From positions 32,001 to 96,000 of IMG/VR virus record IMGVR_UViG_3300021255_005861: a stretch of 64,000 bases of DNA; one strand, given 5' to 3'. Source of the stretch: a virus. Taxonomy: Duplodnaviria; Caudoviricetes. Made by a program: the position numbers and the translations under genes. Below the pieces are notes generated by a model that was not told the DNA's origin, did not search any database, and saw nothing but the letters and a program-made list of their open reading frames with translations. Positions 2,734 through 48,361 of this stretch are shown piece by piece. Within the stretch, counting starts at the first letter, position 1. Each line of letters opens with the position of its first letter.

Positions 2734-3045
2734 TCATAGTTCCTCCCCAAACGTATCCCGTATCAGTTGCCGTAACTCGTCCTTAGTGTCCACCACATAT
2801 GTCTCGACGTACGCATTTTGCAGAGTGCTCTTAATGAGAATGTCTTCGGAAATGCCATGCGAGTAGTTGTGGCATCCCCACGTCAAGCTGATATAATGCC
2901 CGTCGTGAAGCGTTGCATAGTCGATGTCCGGATATGCAGTCCATTCCCAGTCAGCCGGTATGTACTGGAGGCTACTATTGGCCACTACCTCACGACATAC
3001 TGATTCGAAGTCCTTCTCGGATATGTGGTGTATGTAGTTCACCAT
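2734..3045 (-). CDS. hypothetical protein
   Basis: 103-aa ORF overlapping the next gene. Confidence 0.65.
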   Translation of the reverse strand: MVNYIHHISEKDFESVCREVVANSSLQYIPADWEWTAYPDIDYATLHDGHYISLTWGCHNYSHGISEDILIKSTLQNAYVETYVVDTKDELRQLIRDTFGEEL

Positions 3046-3227
3046 TGCCGCTCCTTGGAGGCCACCTTGAAGGCTCTCTTCAGTTCATCGGCAAGTTCGT
3101 ACTCGTAGTTGCCGGACAGCCCCCCGTTAATCCGTATGTCCCCGCAGATCCGCATGAAGGAATCCTGGAATCGGTCGAAGTCGAAGTGCTCCTCGAATTC
3201 ATCGGGCAATTCTATTATAAGTTTCAT
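3039..3227 (-). CDS. hypothetical protein
   Basis: 62 aa, AAGGAGG RBS. Confidence 0.65.
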   Translation of the reverse strand: MKLIIELPDEFEEHFDFDRFQDSFMRICGDIRINGGLSGNYEYELADELKRAFKVASKERQW

Positions 3228-3248
3228 TTCGCCTCCTTGTCCATTACA

Positions 3249-3452
3249 TCATACCCCCAGCTTGTGTTCCTGGAACACCGCGTCTATGCGGCTGAACGCC
3301 ATAAGTACGAAGTTGGCGAAGTCCACCTCGGATAATGTCTCCACGTTGTAGCACGTTGGACAGTCCAGTTTCGCTATGAACTCCCGTGCCTGCTCCTCTG
3401 TGCTGAAGAAGCGCAGCATCTCTCTATCGTAGTATCTTACGCCGTATATCAT
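3249..3452 (-). CDS. hypothetical protein
   Basis: Start moved to MIYGVRYY (GAGGAGG RBS, ATGA overlap). Confidence 0.6.
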   Translation of the reverse strand: MIYGVRYYDREMLRFFSTEEQAREFIAKLDCPTCYNVETLSEVDFANFVLMAFSRIDAVFQEHKLGV

Positions 3453-3694
3453 TTTGCCTCCTCGCCCGATATCGGGGCGGTGGCTATGTCCATAGGCTGG
3501 TCGGTGTTGAGCAGGTAGTCCGCATAGGGGTACCGGTTGTCGAGCCAGTACGACTTCCCGCACCCGTCGCAGGCGTGCAGCCAGCAAAGGGGATCGCGGG
3601 ACATATCCGACCGTACGTACCGCAGGATAGCCCCGCAGTTGTCGCAGAGGGCTTCCTTGAGGATAGGGGTGCACCGGTAATACTTGGTTTTCAT
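3449..3694 (-). CDS. small zinc-ribbon protein
   Basis: CDNC and CDGC pairs; start MKTKYY. Confidence 0.6.
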   Translation of the reverse strand: MKTKYYRCTPILKEALCDNCGAILRYVRSDMSRDPLCWLHACDGCGKSYWLDNRYPYADYLLNTDQPMDIATAPISGEEAK

Positions 3695-4155
3695 TTCGCC
3701 ATCTCCTTGTAGTGCTTTGCAAGTTCTAGCCAACGCTTGTGCCACTTTTCATAAAAAGAAAATTTTGGATTGCACTCAGGCGGACAAGTTGTCATAACAC
3801 CATAGCGATCCGCTATACCTGAAATCATATATCCATTTTTAATAGCATCTACCTTATCCTTGTACCACTTCGCCATCGCCATGCACCGCTTGTACTTACT
3901 ATGACCTAGAGCATCAACAGCATTATTAAAATTTATAGCCATACTCCTATCTCTAAGGAGTAACTCTGTAACTTTATCCTTCAATTGGTCTATCTCTTTT
4001 TCCAATTCCGCAATCACCTTGTCGGCTTCACGTTTCAAATAGACCGCAGTCTGCATATCTTCGGGGCGAGCCTCGTCAAGCGACATTGTTTCAATGTCAT
4101 AGACCAACGGCACAAGCCCTCGGTATTTTTCAAGAGCCTTTGCTACTTCATCCAT
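3691..4155 (-). CDS. hypothetical protein
   Basis: 154 aa; shares YLKxEADKVIAEL with its neighbour. Confidence 0.7.
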   Translation of the reverse strand: MDEVAKALEKYRGLVPLVYDIETMSLDEARPEDMQTAVYLKREADKVIAELEKEIDQLKDKVTELLLRDRSMAINFNNAVDALGHSKYKRCMAMAKWYKDKVDAIKNGYMISGIADRYGVMTTCPPECNPKFSFYEKWHKRWLELAKHYKEMAK

Positions 4156-4507
4156 TACTAACCTCCTTTGGAGCAGATGGCATAGGCATCCAATACGCTA
4201 CACCATAGGAATAAAATGAAAAGTCCATCTTTTGTCGGTCTTTACAATATGTCCATTTGTCAGCGTTCCTGAAACCACTTGAGCCGCAAATGATGTAGTA
4301 TCCTTCCTCGTTAGGCTTTTCATCTGGGAACTTTCTCCAGCGCTGTTCTTCTTTCAGTTCAGCAATCACCTTGTCGGCTTCAGACTTGAGGTAGAACAGG
4401 TTATCATCCAAGTGAAGGTCGTCTATATCACCAGCCTCACGCTCAACTTGCTCTACTGCCCAGTAGATTCGCTCACTGTTAAATGGTTTCAGGTCGTTCA
4501 TTTCCAT
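4148..4507 (-). CDS. DUF551-like protein
   Basis: WRKFPDEKP ... VAYWMPMPSAP signature. Confidence 0.7.
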   Translation of the reverse strand: MEMNDLKPFNSERIYWAVEQVEREAGDIDDLHLDDNLFYLKSEADKVIAELKEEQRWRKFPDEKPNEEGYYIICGSSGFRNADKWTYCKDRQKMDFSFYSYGVAYWMPMPSAPKEVSNG

Positions 4508-4603
4508 TCTTCCTTTATTTCTACTTTCACGTGTTCTTCATTTAACGAAGGGGCAAGGAGTCTTACGGCGAATGTTGAAAATTTGTTTAACGCATATTTT
4601 CTT

Positions 4604-6058
4604 GTGAACTACCCACAGCCTAAAAGGCTGTGAGCTTCGAGTTTTCGCTTCGACGGAGCCACTTGTACTAACCCAGCAGAACTGGGAAGCATAGAGGAGG
4701 CTACCTCAGCGGAGGCGTGTTCCACGCACTCAGCACGTTTAGTCGTGCCAAACAAAAGTACATTACAGGCGGAATGCCAGTCTCTGGGCTTGGTGTATCC
4801 GCAATCACAATGATATGTGCGTTCATCCAACCCAATCTGATTGACTGCACCGCATACCGGACACATCTTGGTTGTCGGCAACCACTTTGACAGCACGAAT
4901 GCACGGTCTGCCTTGGCCAGCATCTTAATGCGCTGTTTAAGGGCACCCATGCAAGAGTGCTGGACTTGCTTGCCGAACCACGTCTGGTGCCAGTTATTGA
5001 TTTGCTCGTCCTGTATGTAGATGACATCGTAGTTGGACACAAGGTCGTGGTAGATTTTGTTGCAGATGTCCTTGCGGACATTCGCAACATGTTCATGCTC
5101 ACGGGCAAGCTGCTTCCTACAGTTCCATCGCCGCTTGGAGTCCTTCTCTTTCTTGTGCCTGTTTAGCATCTTGCTCAGGTACTTCAGGTACTCGGTTTCT
5201 TGCACTTTGCAATCGTAGGTCTTGTTGTCCGATGTCGTTATCGTGTTCTTAATGCCGAAGTCCAGTCCGACACTCTTGCGGGTGCGGTTCCTCGGTTCCT
5301 TCGGTAGCATTACGCTAATCTTTACGTAGTAGCCAGATGCCTTCCTGATTAGCTTGGCATCGGCTATCTCATATTCCTCAAACTCTATCTGATGCAACCC
5401 GTTCACCTTCAGCTTCCTGAATCCAGGAATTGTGATGTGGCTTGCATCCAGAATCTTCGTAAAACCCGTAATGATGGGGATGCAGTTCACTTCCGACTTG
5501 AACTTCAATGCACCAACCTTGATTCCTTTCTTCTTGGCTTTTGCAAGGTTGATGATGTCTGTCTTCTTCTGTGCCACGGTAGCTCTATGGAGCACTGATG
5601 GCAAAGTAATCGGTGAATTGACCGGTTTCTTGTCCTTGTCGTAGTGGACTACATCCTTGTGCTCGGTGTACTTGTAATCGAACATGCTGTTGTCTGGGTT
5701 ATCTTTCGACAAGGACAGCATGTCGTTGACTACCCACTTAGCTTCCTTGAAACATTGGGCCAGCTTCTCGAACACCGATTTCGGGTTGTGCCGTATAGAA
5801 ACTTTAAGCTCGAATACTCGGCATATCTGCGACTTACGACGGGCATGGGTCTCAGCCATGCTCGCCTTAATCCTTGCCTTCGTATCTTCGCTTCTTACCA
5901 GTTCCATATCAAGTTTCTTGACTATACTTATAGTTTAGACGGTTTACTCAATAAATATATCTATTTTTAACGGGTATGAAATGTTATTTATTTCTTACAT
6001 TTGCTATCGGCGGGTCTTACCCACGCCCTAAAGGGCGTGAGCTTGCGACCGCCTATTT
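4604..6058 (-). mobile_element. IS200/IS605-family TnpB-only (IS1341-like) element
   Basis: Related subterminal hairpins at 4611-4637 and 6019-6044; right end GGGTAGTTCAC; TTGAC next to the left end; no tnpA. Confidence 0.8.
4609..5907 (-). CDS. tnpB: TnpB RNA-guided nuclease-like protein
   Basis: VGLDFGIK (RuvC-I), TTKMCPVCG...CDCG zinc finger, RDWHSACN (RuvC-III). Confidence 0.9.
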   Translation of the reverse strand: MELVRSEDTKARIKASMAETHARRKSQICRVFELKVSIRHNPKSVFEKLAQCFKEAKWVVNDMLSLSKDNPDNSMFDYKYTEHKDVVHYDKDKKPVNSPITLPSVLHRATVAQKKTDIINLAKAKKKGIKVGALKFKSEVNCIPIITGFTKILDASHITIPGFRKLKVNGLHQIEFEEYEIADAKLIRKASGYYVKISVMLPKEPRNRTRKSVGLDFGIKNTITTSDNKTYDCKVQETEYLKYLSKMLNRHKKEKDSKRRWNCRKQLAREHEHVANVRKDICNKIYHDLVSNYDVIYIQDEQINNWHQTWFGKQVQHSCMGALKQRIKMLAKADRAFVLSKWLPTTKMCPVCGAVNQIGLDERTYHCDCGYTKPRDWHSACNVLLFGTTKRAECVEHASAEVASSMLPSSAGLVQVAPSKRKLEAHSLLGCG

Positions 6059-36251: not shown

Positions 36252-36776
36252 ATGCTCAAAATCCGAGTTCACGAAAGACTTAACGAGGCATTCAACCCCA
36301 AGACCGTCAAGATTGGCAACCAGGTGTGGATGGCAGAAAATCTCGCCATTGACGATGGTGGCGAGGGTATTAAGGTTCGGAATGGAAATACATATTATGA
36401 TTGGGATGCTGCGATGCGTGTGGCTTCAAACATAAAAGGTTGGCATCTGCCGACATTATCCGAATTTGAAGATTTAGTTGAATTTGTAGGTCCCAAACCC
36501 GCAAATAAATTGAAATCCACAGAGGGATGGGTATTTGAAGAATGGCGGGGTTTAGATACAAAAGGCACTGATGATTTTGGATTTACAGCCCTGCCCGTGG
36601 GGTGTATGGACGTAGCGGGTCTTGGAGGCGTAGGCTACCGCACTCGGTTTTGGAGTTCCTCTTGTAGTGATAAAAAAACCGCCCGAACACTGTCATTATG
36701 GAATGATTTGTCCCGTGTAAATTTCCTACACGATGATAAAGAACTTCTTTTGTCCGTCCGCTTAATCAAGGACTAG
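36252..36776 (+). CDS. tagged Fib_succ_major (FISUMP)-like protein
   Basis: TVKIGNQVWMAENL, GWHLPT..EF..L, GTDDFGFTALP, FWSS, SVRLIKD. Confidence 0.85.
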   Translation: MLKIRVHERLNEAFNPKTVKIGNQVWMAENLAIDDGGEGIKVRNGNTYYDWDAAMRVASNIKGWHLPTLSEFEDLVEFVGPKPANKLKSTEGWVFEEWRGLDTKGTDDFGFTALPVGCMDVAGLGGVGYRTRFWSSSCSDKKTARTLSLWNDLSRVNFLHDDKELLLSVRLIKD

Positions 36777-44130: not shown

Positions 44131-46380
44131 ATGAGTAATGCCATAGCCAACATGAGCCAGTCCGACCTGTACAAGGCGGCGGCACTTGCCGAGGGGTACG
44201 AGTCCGTACCCGTAGACATAGAAACGTTTATTAACGACCCGCAGTACCTCGGACAACTGTTCGCAGGCAACGTCTATCCTTACTGGATGGAGCGCCTGAA
44301 GAAGATATACCCGAATCCGTTCTATTCCCCTGCGCAGGAAATACTAATAACCGGCTGTATAGGCGCCGGAAAGAGTGTTACCTTTTACACACAAGTTTGT
44401 TGTGAGAATACGAAAAAACTAGCAAAGAATATTACGCTTGGCGACAAGGTGTGCGGCACGGACGGGCGCTACTACCCCGTGCTCGGCATCTTCCCGCAGG
44501 GTGTCCTCCATACCTACACGCTGGACGTGCAGCTCCAATCCCCTGACGGAGACCCTGATGACGAGCCCTACGATAGCGTGGACACCAGCGACGACCATAT
44601 CTGGACGGTATACGAGGACGGGGACAAGAAGGACATGCTCACGTCCGAAATCGTGGAAGGCTTGAAGGCTGGCCGTACCTTCTGCCTGCCTACATTGTAT
44701 GGCGACCCAGGTAGGTACTTTTGTGGGTGGCATGACGCAGGATTCCAGGAATGCGTCTGTTTCCATGTGGGCAGCCCCGACCATTTGTTCGCCGTGAACA
44801 ACGGCACGTTCACGCACAATACCACGGTATCGCTCATAGGCATCCTATACGACCTGTACCGCATAACGCTCCTACGCAACCCGCACAAGAAGTGGCACCT
44901 AATCCCCACAACGCATATCGTGTTTACGCTCATCACGGCGACGATGGATCTCGCAGGAGTGGTTCTTGCCGACCAGATCATCGACGCCATATCGGCCTCC
45001 CCGTACTTCTGCTCAAAGTTGATGCCGGGTAAAGGAGACCACATCGATGAGGATATGTTCCCTCATCGCGTGGGGATATCCTTCGGTTCCCGCCAGCGTC
45101 ATAGCATGGGTAAGGCTGTTATCGGTGCTATCCTTGACGAGGCGAACTTCCAGGACGCGGTTGCCGACCAGGCGGTAAAGAACTACAACAGCATCAAGCG
45201 TCGTATGGAATCCCGCTTCATGTCCAAGGGCGGGGAACTGCCCTGCCGCCTGTGGATAGTCTCGTCCCGTACGGACAATGCTTCCTTCCTGGAGAGCCAT
45301 ATCGACGCCAACCGGAACAATCCCAAGGCGTTCATATATGAACCCGCCATATGGGAGATCAAGGCGCACCTCGGCATCTACAGCGGGAAGACATTTCCCG
45401 TGTTCATCGGCTCGGACGTGGAGCAACCAAGAATCCTACATTCGGAAAAGGAGATGGACGACTACATGGGGCGGACCATACAGGTGCCCGTAGAACTCCA
45501 GGAGTCCTTCGAGAACAACCTGCCGGGAGCATTGCAGGACTTGGCGGGCGTGGCCACCCGCAACGGCGTCAACCTCATATACAACGTGGAGGCACTAGAC
45601 AGGTCGATGTGCCTCGACAACTGCATGAAGTCCGACGAACTGCACCTCACGCTCGACGGCGACGACCAGATCGCCGACTTCTACAAGGGCAACCTACCGC
45701 AGGGCAAGTACTACGTCCACCTGGACGGCGGCCTCAAGAGCGACCGCTTCGGCTTTGCCATGACCCGAGTCACCGAGCACATATCGGTGGATGTGACCTC
45801 CGCCGTGGACGGTATGAAGACGAGCCGCATCAGCCCCTCCGTGGAAACCCCCCTCGTGTTCGGCATCAAGGCGCTCCCCGGATCCGAGGTGCCGTTCTGG
45901 AAGGTGAGGCAGTTCCTCGTGTACCTGCGCTCCCAGAAGGTAAGCATCGCCCTCGTCACGTGCGATGGCTACCAGTCCGCCGACATGATGCAGTTGCTGA
46001 TTAAATTGGGCTTCAACGCCAAGTACGCCTCCGTGGACCGCACGAAGGACCCGTATTTGAAACTGAGCAGCAACATACTGCTCGGGCTCATAAAGATGCC
46101 CAAGTCCCCTATCCTGCGCAACGAACTGATGAACCTGCAGAACCTGCCCAAGAAGATAGACCACCCCGCCACGATAATGGTGGACGGGAAGCAGGTCGCG
46201 GGCGGAAAGGACATCGCGGACGCCGTGGCCGCCAGTTCCTACGAGGCGATAGGGGCGTCCATGACGCTCGGCGCATCCTCGCTCATCAATATGCAGAAGA
46301 GCGCCCCCGTGCACATGAACATGCGGGAGCGCCAGGAGTTCGTGATGGAGAAATTCCTCAAGATACCGGTTCGGCGGTAG
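44131..46380 (+). CDS. terL: terminase large subunit with intein
   Basis: Walker A GCIGAGK[intein]TT, Walker B AILDE, nuclease motifs VHLDGG, TCDGYQS, KIDHP, KDIADA. Confidence 0.9.
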   Translation: MSNAIANMSQSDLYKAAALAEGYESVPVDIETFINDPQYLGQLFAGNVYPYWMERLKKIYPNPFYSPAQEILITGCIGAGKSVTFYTQVCCENTKKLAKNITLGDKVCGTDGRYYPVLGIFPQGVLHTYTLDVQLQSPDGDPDDEPYDSVDTSDDHIWTVYEDGDKKDMLTSEIVEGLKAGRTFCLPTLYGDPGRYFCGWHDAGFQECVCFHVGSPDHLFAVNNGTFTHNTTVSLIGILYDLYRITLLRNPHKKWHLIPTTHIVFTLITATMDLAGVVLADQIIDAISASPYFCSKLMPGKGDHIDEDMFPHRVGISFGSRQRHSMGKAVIGAILDEANFQDAVADQAVKNYNSIKRRMESRFMSKGGELPCRLWIVSSRTDNASFLESHIDANRNNPKAFIYEPAIWEIKAHLGIYSGKTFPVFIGSDVEQPRILHSEKEMDDYMGRTIQVPVELQESFENNLPGALQDLAGVATRNGVNLIYNVEALDRSMCLDNCMKSDELHLTLDGDDQIADFYKGNLPQGKYYVHLDGGLKSDRFGFAMTRVTEHISVDVTSAVDGMKTSRISPSVETPLVFGIKALPGSEVPFWKVRQFLVYLRSQKVSIALVTCDGYQSADMMQLLIKLGFNAKYASVDRTKDPYLKLSSNILLGLIKMPKSPILRNELMNLQNLPKKIDHPATIMVDGKQVAGGKDIADAVAASSYEAIGASMTLGASSLINMQKSAPVHMNMRERQEFVMEKFLKIPVRR
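44374..44820 (+). mobile_element. mini-intein (149 aa) in the TerL Walker A motif
   Basis: Starts S-V-T-F-Y-T-Q-V, block B T..DH.W, ends THN followed by Thr; no endonuclease domain. Confidence 0.85.
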
Positions 46381-46744
46381 GCTTCTTTCCGTAGTCCTCG
46401 CCGTAGATGACCTTGGCCCCGATTATCTCGCGCAGGGCGTAGCGGGTCTTGCCGTTGAGGTTGTCGTGCTGCATCCTGTAGAACTCGACGCAGTTCTCCA
46501 CGGGGAGGTCCTTGAACAGGTTGACGACTGTCGCGTCGGCGGGTTCCTTGTAGGAGGGCTTCTTGCGGTTTTCGGGGGCGGGGCCGTCGGGATAAATGGT
46601 TTTTGTTCCTACGAGGGCTCGCATGAGGAAGCGGGACTGGAAGGGGAATTCCTGGGCGTGCTCCTTATAGAACGTCAGCGCCTCGTTGATGGGGGCTTTC
46701 GAGAACCAGTTCAGTTTTTCCTTCAGCTCCAGTGGGATGTTCAT
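46358..46744 (-). CDS. hypothetical protein with two internal repeats
   Basis: F...P......FY / R..LR...G.K.IY occurs twice. Confidence 0.7.
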   Translation of the reverse strand: MNIPLELKEKLNWFSKAPINEALTFYKEHAQEFPFQSRFLMRALVGTKTIYPDGPAPENRKKPSYKEPADATVVNLFKDLPVENCVEFYRMQHDNLNGKTRYALREIIGAKVIYGEDYGKKPTAEPVS

Positions 46745-46806
46745 AGTGGGTCTCCTATATTGTGGGTAGAAAAAATATAGTAAGTGGGCAAAATCTTACT
46801 TTTTAC

Positions 46807-46835
46807 TTGCCAAATTGTTAGGAAATATATATATT
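46807..46835 (+). promoter_or_regulatory. sigma70-like promoter
   Basis: TTGCCA-N17-TATATT. Confidence 0.75.
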
Positions 46836-46841
46836 AAGTAC

Positions 46842-47800
46842 CGTGCAATGAGTTTTAGTCTCATATACGCCCGTACTTGTATATTGGACAGATTTGAATT
46901 ATTTTTTTAGTTCAAGAAAATCCTTAGGAAGTACGGGTTCCTAGGGTTTTTTTTGTACCCATATATGAGTCTAGGCATTGTATGGGCGGGAGCGACTCCC
47001 GTTACGGCGACGGCCCTGGTTTCCACGTAGGAGTGGTTATCCACGGGGGGCTGATAGAAACGAATAGACCGACTACTAGAAAAACCACAATCCATGAACA
47101 GACATAGGCGCGAGCACTGGAGGGGAATCCGAGAGTTGCGCACGAACTGCCTACGGGCAGATGCCCCCATCGGGGGACAGGCGAGAACGCCGAACTGCGG
47201 AAAACAAGTCTGCCGTGAATCCCACGGGCAGTGAGACCGCGACGGAAACCGAGCCAGCGAGCCACGGCGTCCGCACCTAAAGTGAGCGGCTGATGGCGGC
47301 ACGAGAACATGCCATCAGGCTTTCTATAAGGGCAGTGCAGCGGTGCCAGCCATACCCGTCCGAGTGACGCCCAGCACGCGTCACACATCCCGCCTTTTAA
47401 CAGTAATGTTGGTAATTACGTTCGAGAAGCCTGCACACAGGAAGACCGGCGCAGTTGGGCTACGACCCAGTAGAACGTAGCGGAGCAATCCGCCTGTCGC
47501 ACTCCAGACGCATACGAAGCCGGCCATGAGCCGAATTAGCGGTGGAGAGGATAGTCTACTTTCCGTTTTGGGGGGTAAACTGTCCTCTCCACCGCACCGA
47601 GCCGGCGCCGAGCCGAGGCGCGTTGACGAGTTCACGAGTTAATGAGTTGAGGCGTATGAGGATGTGTGGGTGCATACGGCGGGCATGAAGGACGAACGCA
47701 GTTCGGCGTGAATGTGGAATAGGGTGAAGCCTGTGTAGGACGAACGCAGTTCGCCTGGAACACGGCGAACGAGATGACGCCGTATGTGATGGATACGAGT
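46842..47800 (+). ncRNA. candidate large structured RNA or RNA-primed origin region
   Basis: About 1 kb without a credible + ORF; GCGA, TACG, GAAA and GCAA tetraloop hairpins; ~26-bp hairpin 47539-47595. Confidence 0.55.
46922..46954 (+). terminator. attenuator-like terminator
   Basis: 9-bp stem plus T8; loop and arm complementary to 46870-46878. Confidence 0.7.
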
Positions 47801-47923
47801 AAGAGCGTATGACGAGTATAGCGCGTGCTGTGCCACGATGGTTTCTAGGTAGGAGGGCTAGGTAAGAAAAATGTAAGTTGCGATGTGGTAGAGATTTAGG
47901 TATATTTAGACAAGGAGAGACAA

Positions 47924-48361
47924 GTGAGAATCAAGGTTAGCGATAGACAGCGTAACGAGATGTCCCGTGTGGGGAATCTCGGGGAGTTCGAGGTGCAGGT
48001 TTGGAGCAAGGATTGCGGTCCTGCCGTATGGACGCCTGCTCACGTATATATCTATATCCCTCATGTACACGTCTATAGTGAGGTCTCGGGACTGGATGCC
48101 TGCATCAAACTGGCTGAACCTATGTACTTTCCTTACGGCCCACACGTAGATATCCTAAACGAATCGCAGCGTAAGATGTTCAACGAGTTCATGCACCGCC
48201 CGCACCGTACAGGAAAGTTCACATCCAACTACGAGTACGCCGTGTTTCTGTGGAACGACAACAACTCGTCCCACGAGATAGAGTTGAAACTGGACGCTAA
48301 CGGGGAGGTCATTATTCCCGACTATAGCGAAATTGCAAAATATGTACCCAATAGGAGTTAG
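47924..48361 (+). CDS. tagged protein (MRIKVSD...NE-MSRVG)
   Basis: GTG start, AAGGAG RBS. Confidence 0.75.
   Translation: MRIKVSDRQRNEMSRVGNLGEFEVQVWSKDCGPAVWTPAHVYIYIPHVHVYSEVSGLDACIKLAEPMYFPYGPHVDILNESQRKMFNEFMHRPHRTGKFTSNYEYAVFLWNDNNSSHEIELKLDANGEVIIPDYSEIAKYVPNRS

Follow-up and report, generated by a model that had tools for sequence, protein, structure and literature searches.

A candidate gene for a structured RNA in an exchangeable accessory cassette next to the terminase gene of rumen phages

Gene Neighborhood of the Cassette

The window analyzed here is a 64-kb stretch of DNA from an uncultivated rumen phage, corresponding to positions 32001-96000 of an IMG/VR virus record that is 185.7 kb long and classified as a provirus. 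A gene-free segment of approximately 1.1 kb (46815-47923, hereinafter the cassette) is located between a terminase-side block on the left and a block of plus-strand genes on the right (Table 1). The 128-aa gene on the terminase side overlaps the 3' end of the terminase gene by 23 nt; the encoded protein is modeled as a tandem of two three-helix units (pLDDT 86.6) and has zero matches in Pfam, PHROG, PADLOC, and PDB. The 145-aa protein of the right-hand block likewise shows zero matches in the Atlas, Pfam, PHROG, and PADLOC. No tRNA genes were detected within the 64-kb window. A phage ORF at 36306-36770 contains a Fib_succ_major domain (PF09603, 59 bits), which tentatively suggests that the host belongs to the Fibrobacter/Bacteroidota group. 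The terminase of the window contains no intein, those of close relatives contain one (984-1009 aa, PF14890), and distant relatives have a 945-aa terminase in which LAGLIDADG is matched faintly; as judged from the loci compared (L030, 2185-5214; L033, 1509-4463; L002, 6001-8952; L047, 3097-5934), the intein is a presence/absence polymorphism among the relatives.

Table 1. Features of the cassette and its surroundings (window coordinates)
Feature	Position	Strand	Description
Large terminase gene	44131-46380		PHROG 19299; 749 aa; left of the cassette
128-aa gene	46358-46744	-	Convergent with the terminase gene, divergent from P1; kept with or without the cassette
P1, promoter-like site	46807-46835	+	Left cassette edge; TTGCCA-N17-TATATT
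Leader domain	46842-46990	+	Antiterminator, U-run hairpin, inner hairpin 46893-46916, hairpin 46958-86
Antiterminator	46869-81 with 46925-38		9-nt exact complement, 46870-78/46929-37
Terminator-like hairpin	46922-46946		Followed by U8 at 46947-54; ~80 nt past the presumed start
Hairpin	46987-47002		CGGGAG/CUCCCG
5' core	46991-47250	+	Conserved hairpins 47023-36, 47147-60, 47162-79, 47180-91, 47210-31; 93-98% identical among haplotypes
Convincing local stem	47023-26/47033-36		CCAC/GUGG, changed to CCAU/AUGG in L084 and L085
Hairpin	47147-60		CUGCC-UACG-GGCAG (cUACGg)
Hairpin	47164-76		CCCCC-AUC-GGGGG
Hairpin	~47243-51		CGG-AAA-CCG
Central core	47251-47538	+	Hairpin 47290-318, 7-bp stem 47364-70/47378-84, three-way region 47417-79, GNRA hairpin
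Hairpin	47290-318		CUGAUGGC/GCCAUCAG
Convincing local stem	47364-70/47378-84		7 bp; four haplotypes, all pairing; three compensatory positions
Convincing local stem	47431-41/47446-54		Pair 47435/47450 compensatory
GNRA hairpin	47480-93		GCGGA-GCAA-UCCGC; loop 47485-88 stays GNRA (GCAA; GCGA in L007)
Long hairpin	47539-47595	+	~22-26 bp with U-G pairs; 21-nt arms 90% complementary
Tail	47596-47877	+	Hairpin 47605-21; helix 47671-81/47778-88; length varies between haplotypes
Tail twin hairpins	47693-705, 47739-55		GACGAAC-GCA-GUUCG; convincing local stems, as are the leader helices
P2, promoter-like site	47878-47906	+	TTGCGA-N17-TATATT with AAGGAG; P2 unit 47878-47923
Right-hand block		+	145-aa ORF, 176-aa ORF, PD-(D/E)XK exonuclease, phosphoesterase; then head protease and tail-fiber genes

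The original prediction that no credible ORF precedes position 47924 holds, including all three minus-strand frames, which contain mixed stop codons. Among the eight haplotypes of the cassette, 18 of the 19 indels in the core are not multiples of three, and the variable core sites are distributed over the codon phases as 39/33/31, that is, with no three-base periodicity. The cassette is non-coding and has no conserved reading frame. A minus-strand protein and recoding of stop codons were both discarded in view of the mixed stops, the off-frame indels, and the lack of periodicity. A spurious ORF within the cassette is predicted by gene callers.

Distribution and Exchange of the Cassette

Copies of the cassette were identified via the neighboring proteins and via the spurious internal ORF, in two contigs from IMG/VR and in several from ENA and Logan. 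The cassette-bearing contigs (L007, L008, L030, L031, L033, L040, L042, and L081-L086) yield eight haplotypes, all from closely related rumen phages, with core identity of 90.5-97%. The breakpoints of homology recur at 46805-46818 (including those in L007, L034, and L035) and at 47921-47929. In two sibling contigs, L034 and L035, the flanking terminase and exonuclease regions share 94-96% identity with those of the window, and the slot between them is occupied by other genes in place of the cassette, namely, an S-adenosylmethionine lyase gene (PF23780, E = 3e-14) in L034 and a 92-aa ORF together with TnpB in L035. The first gene downstream of the cassette also varies by haplotype, encoding a protein of 145, 146, or 176 aa. 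In distant relatives, where the homolog of the 176-aa protein is approximately 50% identical, the terminase gene directly adjoins the gene for this homolog, and no cassette was found beside the terminase gene in the fetched flanks. Given that the cassette is missing from sibling contigs, it is an optional, self-contained unit rather than an essential cis-acting site. As judged from these comparisons, segment 46815-47923 is a discrete, swappable accessory cassette. The protein encoded in the L034 slot (3041-3781 of that contig) consists of 246 aa with an S-adenosylmethionine lyase domain; its gene is on the minus strand in the locus and comes with a separate promoter box of the TATATTTG type.

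Searches for more distant copies included blastn against GenBank phages, which produced no match to the cassette; scans for exact occurrences of four conserved 16-20-mers in IMG/VR, JGI metagenomes, and GTDB genomes, which retrieved the same close relatives, the rest being chance matches; searches with the neighboring proteins in IMG/VR, which returned only the same two contigs; and the full record of L006, which contains no match to the cassette. The cassette is known only from one narrow phage clade, with no distant homolog found in these searches. Three short contigs in Logan (L081, L082, and L083; window 46777-47811), which derive from several DRR runs, contain the cassette alone and share ends at approximately 46777-87 and 47753; these ends are probably assembly breaks at the cassette junctions in mixed populations. 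The contigs begin upstream of P1 and are therefore assembly fragments; their identification as RNA transcripts was rejected. In L086, a low-coverage ENA contig, cassette homology ends at window position 47061 and the last 97 nt (1-97 of the contig) have no match among the sequences compared, so that this end represents either another variant or a chimera.

Promoter-like Sites

A near-consensus promoter had been predicted, and this site (P1) is present on the plus strand at the left edge of the cassette, with 10 of 12 positions matching; the -35 box is a perfect TTGACA in three haplotypes. The pattern TTGMNA-N17-TATATT occurs only twice in the 64 kb, against 0.03 occurrences expected, and the two sites are P1 and P2, both on the plus strand and bracketing the cassette. 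P2 is kept in every haplotype that reaches that far and is missing in L034, where homology restarts at 47929; because L034 lacks both P2 and the ribosome-binding site, the two belong to the cassette. P2 presumably serves the downstream genes. No promoter-like sites were detected on the minus strand within 46745-47923, and no intrinsic terminator was found between 47600 and 47878. In L007, a TnpB (OrfB_IS605) element of approximately 1.5 kb (3470-4955, corresponding to window position 46814) lies exactly between the -35 and -10 boxes of P1, and its right end, ...GGGTAGTTCAC, touches the -10 region, giving a weak replacement -35 box.

An Attenuator-like Leader

The leader domain can adopt two mutually exclusive folds, with either the antiterminator or the terminator-like hairpin formed; at most 1-2 kcal/mol separate the two in the window, L008, L030, and L033, the four haplotypes with a U-tract for which folds were computed. 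Changes that preserve the structure are found in both arms: two pairs of the antiterminator are compensatory, and one U-G pair of the hairpin is replaced by C-G. The U-run occurs in U8 and CUUCCUUAU variants and is lost or degenerate in three of the seven haplotypes folded (L007, L040, and L085), in which the hairpin is longer; the predicted gate is therefore variable rather than universal. Combining a G+C-rich hairpin, a U-tract, and an exclusive upstream pairing, the hallmarks of an attenuator, the leader can be described as attenuator-like. An ATG at 46850 begins a 20-codon frame that is peculiar to the window: L007 and L040 have lost the start codon, and in L008 and L030 the stops are at other positions. 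Because this ORF is not conserved, a leader-peptide attenuator was rejected. No known aptamer or leader family was detected in Rfam, where the match to His_leader (E = 2.9) is not significant.

Predicted Structure of the Core and Tail

Every hairpin listed in the original prediction was found at its place. The description of the region as dense in hairpins is accurate as far as their presence is concerned; the thermodynamic signal is uneven, with two of the 200-nt windows standing out. For the 871-nt fold, the z-scores are -3.3 (plus strand) and -3.0 (minus strand); among the 200-nt windows, those that stand out contain the leader (z = -5.3 and -3.4 on the plus and minus strands, respectively) and the long hairpin (-4.9 and -3.9), and most of the core windows of this size fold no better than shuffled sequence.

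The G-U pairs, which had been proposed to point to the plus strand, favor it only weakly, with 9 G-U against 5 A-C pairs in the helices predicted on both strands. The leader folds with -43 to -56 kcal/mol on the plus strand versus -34 to -50 on the minus strand, and hairpins with U-G-bearing variants lose 3-10 kcal/mol on the minus strand. For the long hairpin, the respective values are -38 to -44 versus -29 to -38 kcal/mol (the window, L007, L008, and L033); in the L030/L040 type, the plus strand is slightly worse than the minus strand. Both promoter-like sites point rightward. The plus strand is likely to be the RNA strand.

Within the 5' core, alignment columns 320-430 are almost invariant. 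The long hairpin is capped by a GUAA loop in L007 and L008. The tail contains a direct repeat with unit-sized indels, the short repeats and indels being located at 47620-47830. A perfect 13-nt long-range complement connects 47187-99 in the 5' core with 47697-709 in the tail, and the CGAACUGC / GCAGUUCG elements are repeated five times, being found also at 47143-51, 47450-60, and 47745-53. These elements and the 13-nt complement could pair either within one RNA molecule or between molecules.

Sequence Constraint and Covariation

The core is 89-98% identical to the window, compared to 70-91% at the four-fold degenerate sites of the flanking genes in most of the same pairs; the exception is L002, in which the flanks are nearly identical to those of the window and as conserved as the core. 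The leader (77-95%) and the tail (79-90%) are less conserved. Variable columns make up 13% (72/556) of the paired columns versus 26% (104/398) of the unpaired ones. Pairs in which both positions changed number 17, versus 8.1 +/- 1.8 with columns permuted and 0-4 with partners slid, and 12 versus 6.9 +/- 1.5 in controls for the eight-haplotype alignment; because the controls do not account for common ancestry and the structure itself comes from the same alignment of eight close haplotypes, we regard this covariation as moderate support, sparse and inflated by ancestry, all copies being close kin (core identity of at least 90.5%). The long-range helices shift between prediction runs, so the support is limited to local helices, the most convincing of which are indicated in Table 1. 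The hairpins persist despite indels; L007 and L040, for example, lack 9 nt of the leader hairpin and still form a stem there. As far as these alignments allow one to judge, the core is kept beyond the neutral sites and several local stems covary.

Alternative Explanations

The original prediction envisaged either a large phage non-coding RNA, of the GOLLD/ROOL class, or a ColE1-like pre-primer RNA of a replication origin. The first proposal stands insofar as the segment is non-coding and fronted by a promoter-like site, its core is conserved above neutral sites, and compensatory changes occur in some of the stems; its transcription we infer. The class assignment failed: cmscan, run on the window at gathering scores and on 46600-48000, L084, and L040 at E <= 5-10, matched no GOLLD or ROOL model nor any other Rfam family even at E <= 10; the searches with three haplotypes at gathering and permissive thresholds returned only chance microRNA-like matches on the long hairpin. 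The origin was abandoned in view of the absence of the cassette from L034 and L035 and the cumulative GC-skew extremes, which are at approximately 14, 40, and 120 kb of the 185.7-kb record, away from the cassette. More generally, a role of the cassette as a DNA element, be it an origin with transcript priming as in ColE1 or in T4 R-loops, a site of packaging, or a hot spot for recombination, appears highly improbable. The juxtaposition of an AT-rich promoter region and a G-rich structured one, the short repeats and unit-sized indels of the tail, and the adjoining large terminase gene could all be accommodated by such an element, but siblings with 94-96% identical flanks do without it, the terminase gene of distant relatives directly abuts the next gene, no skew extreme falls on the cassette, and the compensatory and G-U-compatible changes point to a folded single strand. 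Three specific identities were rejected, namely, a ColE1-type RNA-primed origin (the cassette is dispensable, with no skew extreme and no RNA I-type antisense promoter), a packaging RNA or pac site (cassette-minus phages share the terminase, 96% identical), and a CsrB-like sponge, given that the 15-18 GGA motifs counted by hand are below the approximately 28 expected from the base composition, so that there is no enrichment.

Two other explanations concern the RNA and the conservation of its sequence. In the absence of a clear 3' terminator, the RNA could be a long cis-acting 5' leader, such that transcripts from P1 would read into the 145-aa and 176-aa genes and tune their expression or mRNA stability. 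The near-equal energies of the terminator and antiterminator and the location of the downstream genes on the same strand are compatible with this explanation, which we nevertheless consider unlikely: the cassette brings its own P2 and ribosome-binding site just ahead of the first ORF, this ORF differs between haplotypes (145, 146, or 176 aa), sibling phages keep the same downstream genes without the cassette, and approximately 900 nt of conserved structure far exceed the need of any known leader. It is more doubtful still that the cassette is a functionless remnant or spacer in a hypervariable slot, the conservation of which would reflect recent divergence, with hairpins arising as a by-product of G+C-rich, purine-skewed sequence. 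All copies indeed come from one narrow clade with no homolog outside it in our searches, flanking genes such as that for the terminase are equally similar (95-98%), and half of the core has local z-scores that do not stand out. A remnant, however, would hardly be expected to have a core conserved above the four-fold sites, and above the leader and tail in the same pairs, variation that avoids paired columns, double-change pairs in excess of the controls, and a leader hairpin that survives the 9-nt deletion.

Proposed Identity and Mechanism

The reading we prefer, with a probability of roughly 0.6, is that the cassette is an accessory, separately promoted gene for a structured non-coding RNA of a new family. 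Transcription would proceed from P1 on the plus strand, starting at approximately 46842, and RNA polymerase would then encounter the attenuator-like leader, in which the U-run hairpin would compete with the upstream antiterminator arm. Read-through would produce a core of approximately 650 nt that comprises some 20 conserved hairpins and extends to the long hairpin. By analogy with the RNase III sites of the early RNA of T7, the long hairpin may undergo double-strand-specific processing of the RNase III type or stabilize the 3' end, in which case the resulting RNA would be approximately 750 nt long. Alternatively, transcription could continue into the repeat-bearing tail, yielding an RNA of approximately 1.05 kb. 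The second promoter within the cassette, P2, would feed the downstream genes.

Because sibling phages lack the cassette, the RNA would be dispensable for replication and packaging; its action is thus most likely in trans, as an optional factor of host interaction in the course of infection. S-adenosylmethionine lyases have a known anti-restriction function, and from the presence of such a lyase in the same slot of a sibling, one may guess at a role of the RNA in counter-defense; the shared-slot argument is weak because the slot also gathers TnpB elements. The anti-restriction enzyme as an alternative occupant of the slot provides a concrete, testable hypothesis. A bolder version, which we consider improbable, is that the RNA is the first of a new class of kilobase-size ornate phage RNAs, an RNA-only factor of counter-defense or host takeover that is interchangeable with the S-adenosylmethionine lyase of the sibling. 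Such an RNA may assemble via the repeated complementary CGAACUGCG / CGCAGUUCG elements.

Comparison with Known Systems

To our knowledge, there are very few bacterial or phage RNAs longer than 500 nt with a complex conserved fold, and the phage-borne ones, GOLLD and ROOL, have no known function. Mobile promoter-plus-stem-loop cassettes (PeSL) of T4-type phages were reportedly described by Arbiol et al. in 2010. The cassette resembles these in being an accessory unit between promoter sequences that is swapped among close relatives at a fixed slot; the cargo of PeSL, however, consists of small ORFs, whereas here it would be a structured RNA of approximately 1 kb, and P1 and P2 are only loosely alike. 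With ColE1 RNA II, the predicted RNA shares the arrangement of a promoter followed by a structured transcript of several hundred nucleotides, but the cassette is dispensable and has no skew signal, no RNA I-type promoter, and no linked replication genes. The leader (46842-46957) is similar to promoter-proximal terminator/antiterminator attenuators and riboswitch expression platforms in its exclusive folds of nearly equal energy, the U8, and covariation in both arms; the gated product proposed here, however, is an RNA rather than a biosynthetic operon.

GOLLD genes often adjoin tRNA genes. The candidate has in common with ROOL and GOLLD the location in phages, the size class (here approximately 0.75-1.05 kb), the many conserved hairpins, and the GNRA and UNCG loops. 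It differs in that neither covariance model matches any of three haplotypes (E <= 10), no tRNA gene is present in the 64-kb window, and the candidate RNA is known only from one narrow phage clade. ROOL (RF03087) and GOLLD (RF01998) are large ornate RNAs of phages and prophages, 0.6-0.8 kb in length, with ROOL sourced from the rumen (PMC12286853). If expressed and folded as predicted, the candidate would represent a new family and an RNA gene gated by an attenuator in these poorly characterized rumen phages. Unlike GOLLD and ROOL, it offers a natural polymorphism, being present in some and absent from other phages that are nearly identical.
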